Shown here: positions 46,128 to 51,804 of the stretch, in pieces | Numbering within the stretch: position 1 is the first letter of the stretch | Layout of the letters: every line of letters starts with the position of its first letter | Origin: Fibrobacter sp. UBA4297 | GTDB lineage: Bacteria > Fibrobacterota > Fibrobacteria > Fibrobacterales > Fibrobacteraceae | Assembly: GCF_002394865.1 (NCBI RefSeq) | Contig: NZ_DGUZ01000012.1 | Span: 94,021 to 158,020, forward strand | DNA length: 64,000 nucleotides | Direction of reading: 5' to 3' | Position numbers and translations under genes: made by a program | The notes under the pieces: generated by a model | What the model saw: the letters and a program-made list of their open reading frames with translations, nothing else | The model's database searches: none | What the model was told of the DNA's origin: nothing

Positions 46128-46550
46128 TCACGAAACCATAGACAAGGCATCCTTCGCAGAAAGCGCCTTGACCCTAGAAAACTTAAAATCCTTTATATTT
46201 TCTGTTACTATAAAGTCAACACGTTCCCGTGCGGCGCACTCCATCTGCAAGCCATCTTCAAGGTCCTTGCAATTTGGATCTGCTAATACAGCAGAGAACA
46301 TATCAGAACTTTCTTCAACAACATTAAAACGCGACAAAATCAGCTGAAGGAACAGCCGACGTTCCTCCACGGAAAAATGCTTGCGCGTGATATAAAACAA
46401 ATCCGTCAGAGAATGCGAACTGACAAAACCCGCAACATAGCCCATCAGACAACTCTTTATCAGCAGTGAAGATTCGTAGTGGCCGGTATTATCGGCAATA
46501 AGCCAGTTGGCAAAAATATTCGTGTCAACAAAAAGCTTAGTCAAGACCAT
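46128..46550 (-). CDS. vapC: PIN-domain toxin (VapC-like)
   Basis: LFVDTNIF (first acidic residue), DLEDGLQ and DFIVTENIKDF, with about 140 aa. It overlaps the upstream small gene by 14 nt. Confidence 0.7.
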   Translation of the reverse strand: MVLTKLFVDTNIFANWLIADNTGHYESSLLIKSCLMGYVAGFVSSHSLTDLFYITRKHFSVEERRLFLQLILSRFNVVEESSDMFSAVLADPNCKDLEDGLQMECAARERVDFIVTENIKDFKFSRVKALSAKDALSMVS

Positions 46551-46776
46551 ACCTCTCATCAAGGTAATCCAATTTTTCCTTGCGACAATCCATCACCGCG
46601 GCAGATTTGATACAGCCAGTGAACCTGCCGTACAGTTCATTCACCCTAGCATCGCTCATTTCGGGCTTGCGGAAACTGCGGATAGAATCAAGAACTGCAG
46701 CAAGAACACGGAGCTTTTCATCAAAGGAAAGCTCCCCCACTTCGTCTATGAATGTCTGCAGTTCTGTATTTGACAT
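46537..46776 (-). CDS. Putative antitoxin (family not recognised)
   Basis: 79-aa ORF overlapping the PIN gene start. A GGAG SD lies 11 nt upstream of the ATG at 46776. Confidence 0.5.
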   Translation of the reverse strand: MSNTELQTFIDEVGELSFDEKLRVLAAVLDSIRSFRKPEMSDARVNELYGRFTGCIKSAAVMDCRKEKLDYLDERYGLD

Positions 46777-46827
46777 GACACTATTACTCCGACTATAATC
46801 CAATATACATTCATTTTGTTGGTGTAG

Positions 46828-46895
46828 CACTTGACAAGCCTCCATTTTACACTTCACTACACAAATGTATACCATTTTATTTCGTTTGTCAAGTG
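46828..46895 (-). promoter_or_regulatory. TA promoter/operator: 10-bp inverted repeat bracketing a TACATTTG box (46862-46869)
   Basis: Perfect inverted repeat CACTTGACAA (46828-46837) / TTGTCAAGTG (46886-46895). Confidence 0.5.
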
Positions 46896-47972: not shown

Positions 47973-48049
47973 AAAAAGTCCTTCTTATAATTTTTGCAAG
48001 CAAAATGTAGTAAAAATAAGAGGACTTTTGGGATATTCAAGCAACGGAT

Positions 48050-48212
48050 TTAAGGTTGTTGAGCGCTGCGCTTCTGGATTTCTTCCAAAGGAATACCCGA
48101 AACAACAGAAATTTCTTCATCGGATAATTGTGTCAGCTTTGTAATAAGACACCTGGTCGTTGATTGTTTCGGTTTCACGGGAGTCTGCATTCCTAGTCGC
48201 AAAATACTTCAT
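48050..48212 (-). pseudogene. Possible frameshifted small HTH-like gene
   Basis: A 31-codon ORF (48212-48117) has a TACATTGC box 4 nt upstream. A 46-codon ORF in another frame (48190-48050) ends LSDEEISVVSGIPLEEIQKRSAQQP. Confidence 0.2.
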
Positions 48213-48450
48213 TATAGCAATGTAGCACTTTATTGTTGTGGATAAGTCGCCCGATAAGGAATGGCGAACTGCTCCCGAAATTGGACTTCGTTTAAAATTT
48301 CAAACAAAGGGCGTCCTTTCAACACGAAAGTTCTACATTGCCAACAGACCAGGAAAAAAGAATTTCTGTATTGTTAACGTCTTGTTGACTTGTGTTTTTT
48401 TATATATTCTTGATGAAAATCAACATAAAAGGACCTTTCGTAATACTAAT

Positions 48451-49626
48451 ATGATTCGAGAAATTACAGTAAAGAATTACAAGTCGATTGTTTCTTTGAA
48501 TACGCATTTAAGCAGATTTAATGTGTTTATTGGAGCAAATGGTTGCGGAAAATCCAATATCCTTGAGTCGATTGCATTGGCAGCGGCGTCCAGCGCTAAC
48601 AAACTGGAACAAGAGTATTTTGACAATAGGGGTATTCGTTTTGTCGATCCTCTATTTATGCTACCAGCATTTGAAGATGTCGAAGCAAAAGAAATTGAAA
48701 TTATTGTGAACGGGGAATCTAATCAAACTATACAATCCAATATCTTTTTCAACCAGTCAGCAAAACCACCTCATTGGGAGGATCGGTCTCTTTCTTATAA
48801 TCGAATTATGGAACTTTTGCTTCAAAAAGTTGGAGATCATCCCAAAGTTTCAGATTTGCTGAATGTTTTAGAGGATGTTAAAAAAGCATCGGAGCATAAC
48901 GGCGATGATATTGTGAACATCGATATTCAAGAAAGTAATAGAAATTTTAAAATAACTCCGAGTATTCCTGGTTTCCAAAAATTCATGATTTATTCTCTTG
49001 AGGAGAGTCGCCTTCGCTCAATCGATGATAAAAAACAAATTCGACCCTTGGGAAATCGCGGAGAAGGTTTGCTACCATATCTGAAAGAATTATCTCAGAG
49101 ACCTAATGGAACAGAAATAATCCAGGAAATCAACGAAAATCTCAAGTTGTTGGACTGGTTTGAGGAACTTTCCATTCCATCGGGTCAGTTGTCATCTGAA
49201 GTCAATATTCGACTTCACGATAGTTATTTAAGAGAATCTCTTGAATATTTCGACCAGAGGAGTACAAATGAAGGTTTCCTCTATCTACTGTTTTATTTGA
49301 CTTTGATTATATCTGACGAAACCCCGAGTTTTTTTGCAATTGAAAATATTGACGCATCATTCAATCCAAAGCTATGCAAAGAAGTTACACGAAGACTTAT
49401 AGAACTAGCCAAGAAACATAACAAACAAATTATAGCAACAACCCATAATCCTGCTATTTTAGATGCTCTTGATTTAGATGATGAAGACGAAAAGCTTCTT
49501 GTCGTCCGTCGATCTGTAGATGGGCATACAAAAATTAATCCGATTAAGTATAAACCTGAGGCGAAGATGTCTTTATCTGAAGCTTGGCTTAAAGGTCTAA
49601 TTGGTGGGCTTCCAAACAATTTTTAA
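48451..49626 (+). CDS. AAA_21/ABC-fold ATPase (OLD/AriA/AbiL-type N-terminal ATPase class)
   Basis: MIREITVKNYKSI start, Walker A GANGCGKSN, signature-like STNEGF, Walker-B-like FFAIEN and H-loop ATTHNP, with 391 aa. Confidence 0.75.
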   Translation: MIREITVKNYKSIVSLNTHLSRFNVFIGANGCGKSNILESIALAAASSANKLEQEYFDNRGIRFVDPLFMLPAFEDVEAKEIEIIVNGESNQTIQSNIFFNQSAKPPHWEDRSLSYNRIMELLLQKVGDHPKVSDLLNVLEDVKKASEHNGDDIVNIDIQESNRNFKITPSIPGFQKFMIYSLEESRLRSIDDKKQIRPLGNRGEGLLPYLKELSQRPNGTEIIQEINENLKLLDWFEELSIPSGQLSSEVNIRLHDSYLRESLEYFDQRSTNEGFLYLLFYLTLIISDETPSFFAIENIDASFNPKLCKEVTRRLIELAKKHNKQIIATTHNPAILDALDLDDEDEKLLVVRRSVDGHTKINPIKYKPEAKMSLSEAWLKGLIGGLPNNF

Positions 49627-49635
49627 TATTGAACT

Positions 49636-50331
49636 ATGATAAACATTGCTCTTTTTTGTGAAGGTGCGTCCGAAGTAAATATCCTTACGCATATTATTGA
49701 AAAATATTTAGGCAGTGACAATGTCAATGTAAACGCTTTACAGCCCACACTAAAGGATGGAAAGCAATTGGGATTTGGAGGATGGCACGAAGTTTTATCG
49801 CATTGCAACGACACTGATGTGGAAAAGGCTTTTGAACAGAATGATTGCCTGGTAATTCAGATTGATTCCGATGCCAGCCATCAAAAGGGATATGACGCGA
49901 TCACTGACCAAGAAAAGCGAATGGGCATTGATGATGCAACTCATTATCTCAAAATAGAAGCCCGTCTAAAACAAAATCTTACTTCAAATATTCTTGCCAA
50001 ATACGGTGAAAAAATTTTCTTTGCAATCTGTTTTAACGAAACAGAATGCTGGTTAATTCCGTTGTTTTACGAGCATGACGAAAAGAAATGTTGCTCAACA
50101 ACAAACTGCATTTTTGTACTCAATCAGGGAATCCCTGACAAAATCGGGCATATCCCTGATAAAGACAAAAATTCACCCACAGCAATTGCAACTTATAGAT
50201 CTATTCTTAAAAAACTAAAGGCAAAAAACATCCCTACAGTAGCCAAATACAACTATGGATTTAAAAAATTCATAGAACAACTAGATGTGTTAAAAAAGGC
50301 TTTGCAGCCTAACCAAAATGATGATTCCTGA
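49636..50331 (+). CDS. TOPRIM-like (DUF4276-like) putative nuclease partner
   Basis: Motifs IALFCEGASE (Glu), VIQIDSDAS (DxD) and NETECWLIP. It is 231 aa and starts 9 nt after the ATPase stop. Confidence 0.5.
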   Translation: MINIALFCEGASEVNILTHIIEKYLGSDNVNVNALQPTLKDGKQLGFGGWHEVLSHCNDTDVEKAFEQNDCLVIQIDSDASHQKGYDAITDQEKRMGIDDATHYLKIEARLKQNLTSNILAKYGEKIFFAICFNETECWLIPLFYEHDEKKCCSTTNCIFVLNQGIPDKIGHIPDKDKNSPTAIATYRSILKKLKAKNIPTVAKYNYGFKKFIEQLDVLKKALQPNQNDDS

Positions 50332-50428
50332 TTCCAAGAATAACAATCGCTATGGCAAATGCAGAGAGTGTAAAGTAAAAAAAATCTAAATCGGTTTCGA
50401 CACCAATACATCGTTGCAAAGCTATTAA

Positions 50429-50461
50429 GGACCTGTTTTTCAAAAACATGGTCCGTTTTTT
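50429..50461 (+). terminator. Rho-independent terminator of the two-gene cassette
   Basis: GGACCTGTTTTT/AAAAACATGGTCC stem followed by GTTTTTT. Confidence 0.7.
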
Positions 50462-50470
50462 GTAATCTAG

Positions 50471-50481
50471 CCCCCCCCCCC
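50471..50481 (+). repeat. Homopolymeric C11 tract
   Basis: 11 consecutive C, 31 nt upstream of the aminotransferase ATG. Confidence 0.95.
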
Positions 50482-50508
50482 TACCGCAACTTCACCGAGG
50501 TTGCGGTA
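50482..50508 (+). promoter_or_regulatory. 9-bp perfect hairpin abutting the start codon
   Basis: TACCGCAAC-ttcaccgag-GTTGCGGTA, then atcc-ATG. Confidence 0.5.
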
Positions 50509-50512
50509 ATCC

Positions 50513-51775
50513 ATGACGCGTTTCGAGAAGAAGGTCTGGCTCTCTAGCCCAACGATGCACGGCGACGAAATCAGGTATGTCACCGAGGCTTACGAGACCA
50601 ACTGGATGAGCACCGTCGGCGCGAACATCAACGAGGTCGAACGGATTGCCGCCGAGAAGGTCGGTTGCAAGTACGCCGTCGCACTCTCTGCCGGCACCGC
50701 AGCCCTCCATCTCTGCACAAAACTTGCTGGCGAAGCTCTCTACGGCATGCCCAAGGCGGGCGAAGGTTCGCTCCGCGGACACAAAGTGTTCTGCAGCGAC
50801 ATGACGTTCGACGCTACCGTGAACCCCATCGCTTACGAAAACGGCGAGGCCGTGTTCATCGACACCGAATACAAGACATGGAACATGGACCCGGTCGCCC
50901 TCGAAAAGGCTTTTGAAATTTACCCGGACGTGCGCCTGGTGGTACTCGTACACCTCTACGGAACCCCGGCCCGCGTTGACGAAATCCGCACCATCTGCCA
51001 AAAACGGGGCGCCCTCCTCATCGAAGACGCCGCCGAAAGCTTCGGAGCAAGCTACAAGGGCAAGCAGACCGGCAACTTCGGTGACTACAGTGCCATCAGC
51101 TTCAACGGAAACAAGATTATCACCGGCTCTAGCGGCGGCATGTTCCTTACCGACAGCAAGGAAGACGCCGAAAAGGTGCGCAAGTGGAGCACCCAGAGTC
51201 GCGAGGCCGCCCCGTGGTACCAGCACGAGGAAATCGGCTACAACTACCGCATGAGCAACGTCATCGCTGGTGTGGTACGCGGCCAGATGCCCTACCTCGA
51301 AGAGCACATTGCCCAGAAAAAGGTGATCTACATGCGCTACAAGGAAGGCCTGAAGGGACTCCCGGTGCAGATGAACCCCTACGATGCTGAAAACAGCGAA
51401 CCGAACTTTTGGCTCAGCTGCCTGATCATCGACAAGTGCGCCATGTGCAAGCAGGTGCGCGGCGAAACCGATGCCCTCTACATCCACGAAAAAGGCAAGA
51501 GCTGCCCGACGGAAATCCTCGAGCGCATCGCCGCCATGAACGCCGAGGGTCGCCCTATATGGAAACCCATGCACATGCAGCCCATGTACATGAGCCACGC
51601 ATTCATCACCGCGAATGGCAACGGACGTGCCCGCACGAACGCCTACATCGCAGGCGAAACACGTGACGTGGGCGCCGACATCTTTGCTCGCGGACTCTGC
51701 CTCCCGAGCGACAACAAGATGACCCCCGAACAGCAAGACGCCATCATCCAGACCATCAAGGAATGCTTCGAGTAA
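50513..51775 (+). CDS. DegT/DnrJ/EryC1/StrS-family sugar aminotransferase (PglE/EpsN-like)
   Basis: PLP-lysine context SFNGNKIITGSSGGM and 420 aa. The segment is visibly GC-rich. Confidence 0.8.
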   Translation: MTRFEKKVWLSSPTMHGDEIRYVTEAYETNWMSTVGANINEVERIAAEKVGCKYAVALSAGTAALHLCTKLAGEALYGMPKAGEGSLRGHKVFCSDMTFDATVNPIAYENGEAVFIDTEYKTWNMDPVALEKAFEIYPDVRLVVLVHLYGTPARVDEIRTICQKRGALLIEDAAESFGASYKGKQTGNFGDYSAISFNGNKIITGSSGGMFLTDSKEDAEKVRKWSTQSREAAPWYQHEEIGYNYRMSNVIAGVVRGQMPYLEEHIAQKKVIYMRYKEGLKGLPVQMNPYDAENSEPNFWLSCLIIDKCAMCKQVRGETDALYIHEKGKSCPTEILERIAAMNAEGRPIWKPMHMQPMYMSHAFITANGNGRARTNAYIAGETRDVGADIFARGLCLPSDNKMTPEQQDAIIQTIKECFE

Positions 51776-51804
51776 TATGGATGCCGGCTGCTTGAACACA
51801 ATAC

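Follow-up and report, generated by a model that had tools for sequence, protein, structure and literature searches.

Organization of the locus

The window analyzed here, a 64,000-nt stretch of a Fibrobacter sp. UBA4297 contig (NZ_DGUZ01000012.1), carries a glycan-synthesis locus in which a two-gene cassette is placed between FnlABC-type genes and a DegT/Bac_transf/glycosyltransferase operon, in the same orientation as the operon. The genes, their motifs and the adjoining elements are listed below in window coordinates.

48056..50509, no strand: strain-variable segment holding the cassette, from the conserved fnlA region upstream to the junction before the DegT gene
48451..49626, + strand: gene 1, ORF for a 391-aa ABC-type ATPase (PADLOC PDC-M31A), based on the ORF, Pfam, PADLOC and Foldseek
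48532..48555, + strand: Walker A/P-loop GANGCGKS, residues 28-35, based on conservation
49261..49278, + strand: motif STNEGF at the ABC signature position, residues 271-276, some 20 residues N-terminal to Walker B, based on position
49330..49353, + strand: Walker B FFAIENID, residues 294-301, with Glu replacing the Asp, Asn replacing the catalytic Glu, and Asp at +3
49438..49452, + strand: H-loop TTHNP, residues 330-334, based on conservation
49627..49635, + strand: 9-nt spacer from the gene 1 stop to the gene 2 start, operon-like coupling, based on sequence
49636..50331, + strand: gene 2, ORF for a 231-aa partner (PADLOC PDC-M31B), a DUF4276/RloB-like putative Toprim-type nuclease
49654..49674, + strand: gene 2 motif 1, FCEGASE, residues 7-13, directly after strand 1; E9-G10 invariant
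49855..49878, + strand: gene 2 motif 2, IQIDSDAS, residues 74-81, at the end of strand 3; Q75-I76-D77-x-D79 (DxD) invariant
50035..50052, + strand: gene 2 motif 3, NETECW, residues 134-139, after strand 4; E135, E137, C138 and W139 invariant
50429..50461, + strand: terminator-like hairpin and U-tract about 100 nt past the gene 2 stop, based on RNA folding

Both ORFs are as the first-pass annotation gave them, co-directional, with products of 391 and 231 aa and a 9-nt gap. Public gene calls and the mechanical ORF start gene 1 at a GTG at 48238 (462 aa); we place the start at the ATG at 48451 instead, because 120 of 121 gene 1 homologues begin there with an aligned 'MI' N-terminus. As had been described, the cassette is AT-rich between neighbours of higher GC (34-38% against 50-60% in the flanks), with a GC fraction of 0.34-0.38 over 48.2-50.4 kb, compared with 0.52-0.56 in the fnlA-type gene and 0.56-0.60 in the DegT aminotransferase gene. 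The cassette shares its low GC with the glycosyltransferase part downstream (52-64 kb; 0.29-0.43), which is equally or more AT-rich.

The cassette had also been credited with a strong terminator of its own. A hairpin at 50429-50454 followed by GUUUUUU does exist and is a plausible terminator, but its strength is only moderate (-14.3 kcal/mol; z = -2.98; matched in stability by 1 of 200 shuffled sequences), and a simple consensus scan missed it. A sigma-70 promoter scan gave a score no better than shuffles, the Bacteroidetes-type TAnnTTTG motif was not found on the + strand upstream of gene 1, and the direct and inverted repeats of the cassette region are short and at chance level, with no transposon-like ends seen.

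The site of the cassette is a strain-variable hotspot. In contigs encoding an identical FnlA protein, homology to the window stops at about 48047-48055 and other content follows; on the far side, homology to locus L001 stops at 50509, the position at which the 112-kb contig L019 also ends. Beside an identical FnlA elsewhere, the same site holds either a PtuA-like ATPase with a PDDEXK_2 nuclease-family protein or no cassette, which marks this intergenic site between the two arms of the glycan locus as a swap-in/swap-out point for ATPase-nuclease cassettes. Within the window, the neighbours of the cassette are glycan-synthesis genes, with no defence genes other than a PIN toxin-like gene.

Gene 1 is an ABC-type ATPase with Asn at the catalytic-Glu position

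The assignment of gene 1 to the ABC-family ATPases of the AAA_15/AAA_21 group, with an ABC head fold, is supported by sequence and structure comparisons alike, and the ABC-fold ATPase of the first reading is borne out. The protein scores above the Pfam cut-offs for AAA_21 (2e-18, 67.9 bits; cut-off 27) and AAA_15 (4e-17, 63.2 bits; cut-off 32.1), HMMER alignments agree, and its AF2 model, of only moderate confidence (pLDDT 69.6), retrieves ABC ATPase heads in Foldseek (E 3e-9 to 1e-6), with probability 1.0 for the Eco8 retron effector, PtuA, Rad50, SMC, OLD and GajA. The motifs follow one another in ABC order (MIREITVKNYKSI, GANGCGKSN, STNEGF, FFAIEN and TTHNP), and all those quoted previously for the two genes are present and coincide with invariant family columns. 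In Walker A, residues G28, G31, G33 and K34 are invariant among 121 close homologues and S35 is S or T; across the wider family, K34 is kept in 144 of the 145 non-gap representatives. The H-loop H332 is invariant in close homologues and kept in 148/149 non-gap representatives. By its position, STNEGF is the putative ABC signature motif, and its columns S271, N273, E274 and G275 vary little or not at all. The AAA_15/AAA_21 group also includes AriA, PtuA, GajA/OLD and NsnB.

The register of Walker B is given by HMMER alignments that place the 'IENID' of gene 1 on the 'IDEID' of PtuA and the 'EEPE' of Thermus OLD, and the canonical form, hhhhD-E with a catalytic Glu, is not found in gene 1. The non-canonical motif noted at first sight is real, but its two changes differ in reach. 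The Glu-to-Asn change is family-wide, with N299 present in 151/151 family representatives, whereas the Asp-to-Glu change belongs to a close clade only (position 298 is D in 137 representatives and E in 14). Position 301 remains acidic throughout (D in 120, E in 31), and the [DE]N motif recurs in 77/77 genomic loci with a readable motif, as well as in plasmid and viral copies. The same 'EN' in place of the Walker B DE dyad has been published for NsnB, the ABC ATPase of Menshen.

Because the Asn is invariant at the catalytic-Glu position and the Walker A Lys and the H-loop His are retained, the sequence suggests that gene 1 works chiefly as a switch that binds ATP and hydrolyses it slowly or not at all. 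A loss of hydrolysis would be expected by analogy with the behaviour of E-to-Q and E-to-A forms of other ABC ATPases; the kept His and the acidic residue at +3 could allow residual catalysis. It is conceivable, although on balance we doubt it, that PDC-M31-type ATPases are natural 'EQ-like' ABC ATPases, that is, binding switches that need no hydrolysis to arm or release the nuclease. If true, this would bear on the open question of whether ATP binding or hydrolysis drives ABC-ATPase immune sensors, and the family-wide Asn, common to NsnB too, provides a natural experiment on the need for hydrolysis in ATPase sensors.

Gene 2 is a putative Toprim-type partner

The hallmarks of a Toprim domain are an alpha/beta core with a conserved Glu after strand 1 and a DxD after strand 3 (PMC12065111). 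In the AF2 model of gene 2, which is confident (pLDDT 92.3), E9 follows the strand at residues 2-7, D77-x-D79 closes the strand at residues 71-77, and a further strand at residues 127-132 precedes motif 3. The invariant columns of gene 2 are those of an alignment of 24 sequences.

Domain profiles place the protein near DUF4276. Pfam returns sub-threshold matches only (DUF3226, 1e-3; OLD-like_TOPRIM, 0.11), and against DUF4276 (PF14103; gathering threshold 30.2 bits) gene 2 has no match at E <= 1. The homologue P0062, 39% identical, passes that gathering score at 30.6 bits, other family members reach 17-26 bits, distant ones match DUF4276 and RloB below threshold, and a plasmid homologue (26% identical) is annotated as 'DUF4276 family protein'. 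Gene 2 is therefore at best a remote DUF4276 relative.

Structure and profile-profile comparisons gave no significant match to a Toprim domain. Foldseek gave a best E of 0.029 against the PDB, with no Toprim among the top 50, and nothing below E 0.01 against BFVD (best E 0.011); the top matches are generic three-layer alpha/beta folds. The PDB sequence-profile search was empty, NCBIfam yielded nothing significant, PHROGs gave chance-level matches (E 0.013-0.016), and the phage GenBank collection held no gene 2 homologue. The hhalign comparisons of the gene 2 family with P2 Old (E 0.27), the single HEC-01B sequence (E 0.77) and a 121-sequence HEC-01B-type DUF4276 profile (E 0.26) were not significant, and in all three only the first motif was aligned, on residues 394-415 'VLLVEGKTE' in the non-significant P2 Old alignment. 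A comparison by eye places NETECW co-linearly with the 'CRELEAF' stretch of HEC-01B, a DUF4276 protein.

Considering the motifs, the order of secondary-structure elements, the sub-threshold DUF4276, RloB and OLD_TOPRIM matches and the published classification of DUF4276 and RloB as Toprim (PMC12065111), the carboxylates E...DxD...ExE of gene 2 most likely form a Toprim-type metal site. Of the TOPRIM-like partner proposed in the first-pass annotation, the acidic triad stands, invariant after strands 1, 3 and 4, but the fold itself was not confirmed by Foldseek or hhalign. DUF4276 proteins have been described as pairing with ABC ATPases in MADS, HEC-01 and variants of Menshen.

The cassette matches the candidate defence system PDC-M31

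The pair had been described as matching no nameable system, a statement that no longer holds, since PADLOC matches both genes to PDC-M31A/B, a candidate published in 2024. PDC-M31A is the best of the 118 PADLOC matches of gene 1 (E 3.2e-65, 218.8 bits) and covers residues 1-389 of 391 on model positions 1-394 of 395. The best PADLOC matches of gene 2 are to the PDC-M31B models, at 3.7e-11 (residues 1-85) and 8.5e-11 (residues 3-164). The assignment is made from these individual model matches and the adjacency of the genes, as distinct from PADLOC's own system-calling rules, and the reading of the cassette as a further instance of an already catalogued candidate phage-defence pair is well supported. 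The PDC systems are 145 candidates predicted by "guilt-by-embedding", starting from genes that sit inside BREX, DISARM and type I restriction-modification (R-M) systems, and PDC-M31 is cassette CAS_00126, with a count given as 102 (Payne et al., bioRxiv 2024, doi 10.1101/2024.01.29.577857). No mention of PDC-M31 by name was found in the literature searched.

Pairing and genomic contexts of homologous pairs

Pairing of the two genes and their presence in defence contexts had been set in advance as tests of the first-pass proposal, and neither refuted it. At all 78 informative genome loci, the gene 2 homologue is immediately preceded, on the same strand, by a gene 1 homologue. The inter-gene gap is 3-38 nt in 77/78; the apparent gap of 352 nt in the remaining locus (L097) arises because gene 2 is aligned only in part there. 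The same adjacent pair occurs on plasmids and IMG/VR contigs, and its carriers comprise about 260 species-level genomes, mostly Bacteroidota, together with cyanobacteria, Desulfobacterales, small plasmids and some viral contigs. Identical copies of the pair are present on 13 contigs from several samples; judging from the sample names, these are apparently rumen metagenomes. Across 80 loci the pair has no conserved third partner: of the 263 flanking ORFs, 173 are singletons. A 612-aa ORF adjoining the cassette in L001-L004 was considered as a third component and rejected, having no Pfam or PADLOC match and not being conserved with the pair elsewhere.

Searching the 80 loci by tblastn for HsdM/S/R, TIR, AbiEi, UpxY, FnlA, DegT and glycosyltransferases returned almost nothing, and the defence contexts were found by clustering the neighbours and then annotating the recurrent ones. 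The arrangement SspB-SspC-pair-SspD-SspE, or a partial version of it, accounts for 12/80 loci, and a further 6/80 place the pair between an EcoRI-like methyltransferase and a GmrSD_N/HNH restriction enzyme; L031 is a seventh case, with a match to the restriction enzyme only. A 72%-identical pair sits between hsdS and hsdR, beside TIR genes, PDC-M50A and AbiEi. Homologous pairs are thus found within Ssp, type I R-M and type II R-M systems. With the few probes used, only about one quarter of the 80 genomic loci were assigned to defence contexts.

The pair also stands alone, in a biotin/fimbrial region, a polysaccharide-utilisation locus, capsule loci, plasmids and the window itself. It is cargo of mobilizable Acinetobacter plasmids of 10-13 kb and of one cyanobacterial plasmid, and in locus L015 it lies near DUF2442/DUF4160 toxin-antitoxin (TA)-like genes. 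Glycan-synthesis neighbours were seen in about 4 of some 90 loci examined; in another capsule-type locus, a 50%-identical pair directly follows the NusG/UpxY-like gene at its head.

Relation to other ATPase-nuclease systems

With PDC-M31 the cassette shares gene order and adjacency, and some of its homologues lie within R-M type systems, in keeping with the criterion by which the candidate was discovered. It departs from PDC-M31 in that the gene 2 match is limited to the N-terminal 85-164 residues of the B models, and in that the present copy is embedded in a glycan locus rather than in a defence system. HEC-01 of Pseudomonas agarici likewise consists of an ABC ATPase gene and a gene for a small Toprim-like (DUF4276) partner. 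Gene 1 matches HEC-01A at about 1e-25 and gene 2 matches HEC-01B at 3e-4, the latter with E, DxD and ExE motifs that are co-linear by eye. HEC-01A, however, carries a catalytic Glu ('VEEPE') where the gene 1 family has Asn, and the profile-profile comparison of HEC-01B-type proteins with the gene 2 family is not significant. As the nearest assayed relative by architecture, HEC-01 gave no protection against the phage panel used (doi 10.1101/2024.01.29.577857).

Menshen (NsnA-NsnB-NsnC) shares the EN-for-DE change through NsnB, and some NsnC effectors bear DUF4276 or RloB Toprim domains (PMC12065111). The match of gene 1 to the NsnB model (6.6e-23) is far below that to PDC-M31A; no NsnA (ParB/DUF262) gene accompanies the cassette, whose neighbours are FnlA-type and DegT genes; the inactive-PIN domain at the N-terminus of NsnC has no counterpart in gene 2; and Pfam detects no DUF3696 domain in gene 1.

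The first-pass annotation had likened the cassette to PARIS, AbiL and DUF4276-associated pairs, in which an OLD-type ATPase and nuclease are split into two proteins. PARIS (AriA/AriB) also splits an AAA_15/21 ABC ATPase from a Toprim-type effector, and gene 1 matches AriA at 2e-26, far more weakly than it does PDC-M31A. AriB, in contrast, is a DUF4435 Toprim, and gene 2 has no match to DUF4435 (Pfam) or AriB (PADLOC); AriA has a catalytic Glu, E393, whose change to Ala abolishes ATPase activity, where gene 1 has Asn. AbiL (AbiLi/AbiLii) and MAD3-MAD4 of MADS are grouped with PARIS as pairs of ABC ATPase and Toprim nuclease, the partner being RloB-type in AbiL and DUF4276-type in MADS in the published domain set (PMC12065111). 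Gene 1 matches AbiLi at 5.6e-20 and mad3 at 5e-14, and PADLOC gives no AbiLii or mad4 match for gene 2; in NCBIfam, MADS3 scores 47.7 bits where the cut-off is 420, and the other MADS genes are absent nearby. OLD nucleases (classes 1-4) carry ATPase and Toprim in one polypeptide or with a Gabija- or retron-type partner set, unlike the cassette, where two ORFs are separated by a stop codon and a 9-nt gap; the PADLOC Old match of gene 1 reaches only 4.5e-16, its best stretch being residues 2-61.

Interpretation of the cassette

We consider it probable that the two genes form a self-contained module of PDC-M31 type directed against phages or mobile elements. Most likely, gene 1 would serve as an ATP-dependent sensor and regulator and gene 2 as a nuclease effector. 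PARIS, with its ATP-dependent sensor scaffold that releases a nuclease, provides the mechanistic template. By analogy with PARIS, Septu and the predicted NsnB-NsnC complex of Menshen, an oligomer of the ATPase would bind ATP and hold back the nuclease until an infection cue released or activated it; the cue might be a phage inhibitor of restriction- or modification-based systems. Cleavage of nucleic acids would then bring about growth arrest or an abortive infection response. Family membership, conserved motifs, strict pairing, embedding in defence systems and the hotspot location are observed, whereas nuclease activity, its sequestration and release, the trigger and the loss of hydrolysis are inferred. 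Should the assignment hold, the cassette would be one more case of a widespread two-gene candidate immune module, and the strict pairing and the Ssp and R-M embedding lend independent support to PDC-M31 as a defence candidate. All of these points leave current views standing. The cassette is best seen as a fairly ordinary accessory defence module at a strain-variable position of a sugar-coat gene cluster.

Carriage by the mobilizable Acinetobacter and cyanobacterial plasmids, strain-variable islets beside TA-like genes (PIN here, DUF2442/DUF4160 in L015), the Pfam text for AAA_21 ('putative AbiEii toxin, Type IV TA system') and the negative HEC-01 assays would all suit a selfish addiction or TA-like module, in which an ATPase-controlled nuclease toxin stabilises the mobile or variable DNA that carries it and has no dedicated anti-phage role. 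We hold this reading to be unlikely, since the repeated embedding in Ssp, type I and type II R-M operons is the very signature used to predict defence and the relatives of the ATPase (AriA, PtuA, NsnB and MAD3) all belong to defence systems; addiction and abortive-infection defence are, moreover, compatible with each other.

The same embedding could instead mean that the pair supplies accessory subunits, such as an auxiliary nuclease-ATPase, to its host Ssp or R-M systems, the window copy being an orphan remnant. In favour are its place between sspC and sspD in 12 of the 80 loci and, in six, a same-strand position flanked by a methyltransferase gene and that of the cognate restriction enzyme. 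One conserved pair accompanies host systems of three unrelated kinds (Ssp, type I and type II R-M), however, it occurs alone in many unrelated contexts, and the copy in the window is intact and is the one repeated identically on 13 contigs, all of which renders this explanation quite improbable.

A role in the synthesis or regulation of the surface polysaccharide of the locus, for which the position and orientation of the cassette and the 50%-identical pair after the NusG/UpxY-like gene might speak, is highly improbable given that, in strains whose FnlA is identical, the site is without the cassette or holds another ATPase-nuclease pair, that so few loci have glycan-synthesis neighbours, that neither protein resembles glycan-pathway families in Pfam or NCBIfam, and that the GC content of the cassette is unlike that of the flanking fnlA and DegT genes. 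For a PDC-M31-type defence module, a link to the locus could still exist at the level of expression, which, as a weaker possibility, could be coupled to the capsule locus, the pair heading capsule-type operons both here and in L012-L014.

Identity and layout of the cassette

By sequence and by the adjacency of its two genes, the pair fits the PADLOC phage-defence candidate PDC-M31 and can be classed as a member of a catalogued candidate kind, where the first-pass annotation had found no system that it could name. PDC-M31 corresponds to cassette CAS_00126 (count 102), one of 145 predicted candidates (doi 10.1101/2024.01.29.577857). PDC-M31A is by far the top PADLOC-DB match of gene 1 (3.2e-65, full length), followed at 1e-23 to 1e-26 by PDC-M25A, AriA (the ATPase of PARIS), HEC-01A and NsnB (the ATPase of Menshen), while the best PADLOC matches of gene 2 are to PDC-M31B (3.7e-11 and 8.5e-11) and HEC-01B (3e-4). 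Five other systems were rejected as the identity of the pair, a defining feature of each failing: the pair has neither the DUF4435 partner of PARIS nor the NsnA and inactive-PIN domain of Menshen, gene 1 scores 47.7 bits against the 420-bit cut-off of MADS, whose other genes are absent, there is no AbiLii match as AbiL would call for, and the two separate ORFs differ from the single-chain OLD nucleases.

Features of the cassette and of the adjoining locus
48451-49626, + strand: gene 1, ABC-type ATPase, 391 aa from ATG 48451
49636-50331, + strand: gene 2, putative Toprim-type partner, 231 aa
50429-50454: hairpin followed by GUUUUUU, ~100 nt past the gene 2 stop (-14.3 kcal/mol, z -3.0)
46128-46562, - strand: PIN_3-domain toxin-like ORF (Pfam 2e-13), between the FnlA-type and FnlB-type genes
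46537-46875, - strand: small ORF upstream of the PIN_3 ORF and overlapping it, no Pfam match

The two genes are co-directional and separated by a 9-nt spacer. The mechanical ORF of gene 1 opens farther upstream, at GTG 48238; public gene calls start either at this codon (462 aa) or at another upstream one (426 aa). We place the start at 48451, as originally read, because the aligned sequences of 120 of 121 close homologues begin with 'MI' exactly there and because the region upstream of 48347 is absent even from a cassette copy that is 98% identical; the longer calls over 48238-48450 in public assemblies are probable mis-annotations. The AT-richness remarked on earlier is borne out by a GC content of 0.34-0.38 across 48.2-50.4 kb, whereas the FnlA-type gene has 0.52-0.56 and the DegT aminotransferase gene 0.56-0.60; the glycosyltransferase part further downstream is equally AT-rich (0.29-0.43). 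The strong terminator initially proposed for the cassette is present as a hairpin with a U-tract, but its strength is only moderate and it was not in the output of a consensus terminator scan; it is plausibly an intrinsic terminator, not an outstanding one. Promoter scans of the window sequence yielded no assignable promoter for the cassette.

The ATPase and its Walker B motif

Gene 1 scores above the Pfam gathering thresholds of AAA_21 (2e-18) and AAA_15 (4e-17), and its moderately confident AF2 model (pLDDT 69.6) retrieves ABC ATPase heads with Foldseek at probability 1.0, among them the retron Eco8 effector, PtuA (the ATPase of Septu), Rad50, SMC heads, Thermus OLD and GajA, in keeping with the ABC fold first assigned to it.

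The register of the Walker B motif was set with HMMER alignments of the gene 1 family profile to solved structures. The family 'a-I-E-N-I-D' pairs with 'L-I-D-E-I-D' of PtuA ('I-A-A-I-D' in the structure of its Walker B mutant) and also with 'E-E-P-E' of Thermus OLD. These alignments put Glu at the Asp position and Asn at the catalytic-Glu position, the same register that had been reached by hand. FFAIENID is invariant across 121 close homologues. In a wider sample of 150 representatives of 50%-identity clusters, all with E < 1e-62 (counts given out of 151), 151/151 have Asn at the catalytic-Glu position and D or E at +3, the Walker A Lys and the H-loop His are all but invariant, and the Asp position holds D in 137 and E in 14. 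All 77 genomic loci with a readable motif, as well as the plasmid and viral-contig copies, carry [DE]-N. Since Asn is universal whereas the preceding position varies, the change that defines the family is Glu to Asn, and Asp to Glu is a local variant; Glu at the Asp position occurs also in Thermus OLD and in HEC-01A ('VEEPE'). The peculiarity is real and family-wide but previously described for a related ATPase, Menshen NsnB, in which DE is replaced by EN. In other ABC ATPases replacement of this Glu yields proteins that bind ATP but are impaired in its hydrolysis, as in AriA E393A and in the EQ cohesin heads found among the Foldseek matches, so that slow or absent hydrolysis may reasonably be expected of gene 1.

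The partner protein

A word-indexed search detected 65 relatives of gene 2, and in an alignment of 24 of them E9-G10, Q75-I76-D77-x-D79, E135-x-E137-C138-W139, C153 and C158 are invariant. In a confident AF2 model (pLDDT 92.3, pTM 0.90) the acidic motifs follow strands 1 (2-7), 3 (71-77) and 4 (127-132) of an alternating beta/alpha core; E after strand 1 and DxD after strand 3 of such a core is the arrangement described for Toprim domains (PMC12065111). The TOPRIM-like motifs originally noted hold up, but searches aimed at the fold itself came out weak or negative: no Foldseek match in PDB or BFVD fell below E 0.01 and none of the top 50 was a Toprim protein, a PDB profile search was empty, Pfam matched gene 2 itself only to DUF3226 (1e-3) and OLD-like_TOPRIM (0.11), and hhalign against P2 Old and HEC-01B-type DUF4276 profiles aligned motif 1 alone, without significance.

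In favour of a Toprim relationship, a 39%-identical homologue scores 30.6 bits to DUF4276, narrowly over the 30.2 gathering score, distant members have sub-threshold matches to DUF4276 and RloB, and a plasmid-borne homologue of 26% identity carries the annotation 'DUF4276 family protein'. DUF4276 and RloB are classed in the Toprim superfamily, with E/DxD residues present (PMC12065111), and the DUF4276 protein HEC-01B is reported to have a metal site in common with BpOLD (doi 10.1101/2024.01.29.577857). On the strength of these matches, the PADLOC results and the published classification, gene 2 is fairly likely to represent a distinct, putative family at the DUF4276/RloB edge of the superfamily. 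The invariant C138, C153 and C158 (residues 138-158, window 50047-50109) lie directly past the third acidic motif and may bind a metal (zinc) or be linked by a disulfide.

Distribution and defence context

A pattern scan for gene 2 relatives, using one genome per species, identified 261 genomes, most of them Bacteroidota (rumen/gut Bacteroidales, Prevotella, Muribaculaceae, Chitinophagaceae, Flavobacteriaceae) and the remainder Cyanobacteria, Desulfobacterales, Armatimonadota and Ignavibacteria. The expected co-occurrence of the two genes is evident: a gene 1 homologue lies immediately upstream on the same strand in 78 of the 80 loci kept, the other two being cut by contig ends, and the gap is 3-38 nt in 77/78, the exception (L097) having an apparent 352 nt with gene 2 aligned only in part. 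The arrangement recurs on 10-13 kb mobilizable Acinetobacter plasmids, a Pseudanabaena plasmid and 10 IMG/VR contigs. No conserved third gene accompanies the pair, 173/263 flanking ORFs being singletons.

Recurrent neighbours among the ORFs of the 80 loci are defence genes, as had been anticipated for a defence-island resident. The pair sits inside SspB-SspC-[pair]-SspD-SspE, whole or in part, at 12 loci, and between an EcoRI-like methyltransferase and a GmrSD_N/HNH restriction enzyme at 6, with a seventh such locus (L031) where the restriction enzyme alone was matched. A 72%-identical pair lies between hsdM-hsdS and hsdR, in a locus that also holds an AAA_15 ATPase, two TIR proteins, PDC-M50A and AbiEi. 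This embedding is exactly the 'guilt-by-embedding' signal behind the definition of PDC-M31. On contig L005 (5178-8591) a single type I R-M operon houses a densely packed island of several systems: the interval from hsdS to the pair encodes an AAA_15 ATPase of 536 aa, two proteins with TIR domains and a 135-aa protein resembling PDC-M50A.

Proposed function

The best-supported reading pairs a sensor ATPase with an effector nuclease, on the model of PARIS, Septu, Gabija and the predicted NsnB-NsnC complex. Gene 1 would bind ATP and control the gene 2 nuclease, which an infection cue would release or activate; the invariant Asn at the catalytic-Glu position suggests an ATP-binding switch with little hydrolysis. 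Because the pair is embedded in R-M and Ssp systems, we infer a possible back-up role in which inhibitors of these host systems would act as trigger, as Ocr triggers PARIS. Two rival readings, that the pair serves its host R-M or Ssp system as an accessory and that it is an addiction module, have less support than the sensor-effector arrangement.

Insertion site

The cassette is flanked on its left by an FnlA/FnlB/FnlC-type set on the minus strand and on its right by a DegT-Bac_transf-GNAT-glycosyltransferase operon on the plus strand. Among contigs encoding identical FnlA, homology to the window breaks off near 48050, some 80 bp upstream of fnlA, and the content beyond differs: the same cassette, the cassette with an extra 612-aa ORF, an HTH gene with a PtuA-like ATPase, PDDEXK_2 and transposase, or ordinary glycan genes without the cassette. 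On the other side, homology to the sister strain L001 stops at 50509, where the 112-kb contig L019 also ends. Given this variation past ~48050 and the break at 50509, the cassette is an occupant of a strain-variable hotspot, outside the glycan pathway, and a glycan function is less well supported than defence.

Several further observations concern this site. In L104 (1-5907) the hotspot holds a different cassette of the ATPase-nuclease type: a PtuA-like AAA_15 ATPase (PADLOC PtuA 5e-35) and a PDDEXK_2 protein are encoded, along with an HTH_37 protein and a transposase fragment, on the corresponding side of an identical fnlA. In L104 and L107, both with identical FnlA, fnlA directly adjoins fnlB with no PIN_3 ORF between them, and 46128-46875 of the window has the appearance of a TA-like insertion of its own in this locus. 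In L001 (also L002-L004) the 98%-identical cassette is accompanied, at 3384-5682 of L001, by the extra 612-aa ORF on the opposite strand, which has no Pfam or PADLOC match and matches only phrog_36744 (3e-10), and by an 86-aa ORF that is intact and separates fnlA from the ATPase gene. In the window (48130-48346) 130 unrelated bp, holding a 22-nt inverted repeat (48217-48238 / 48320-48341), stand in for the 612-aa segment, and the 86-aa ORF is broken by a 98-bp deletion.

Downstream, a run of 11 C (50471-50481) lies directly 5' of a 12-bp hairpin (50482-50508; -18 kcal/mol, z -4.8), both preceding the DegT start codon at 50513; 50471-50512 may mark a site of recombination, may be prone to slippage with effects on the downstream operon, or may be no more than an assembly breakpoint. 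In L018 the caller took a 435-aa antisense ORF (window 50492-51799, - strand) in place of the + strand DegT aminotransferase (Pfam 1e-71), a probable mis-annotation. In L012 (6483-10708; also L013, L014) a 50%-identical pair lies directly 3' of a NusG/UpxY-like gene and a 142-aa ORF, adjoins a divergent resolvase and heads a capsule-type locus (acyltransferases, sulfatase, glycosyltransferase). The window pair is likewise at the 5' end of a plus-strand glycan operon in the same orientation, and co-transcription with a capsule-type operon is possible.
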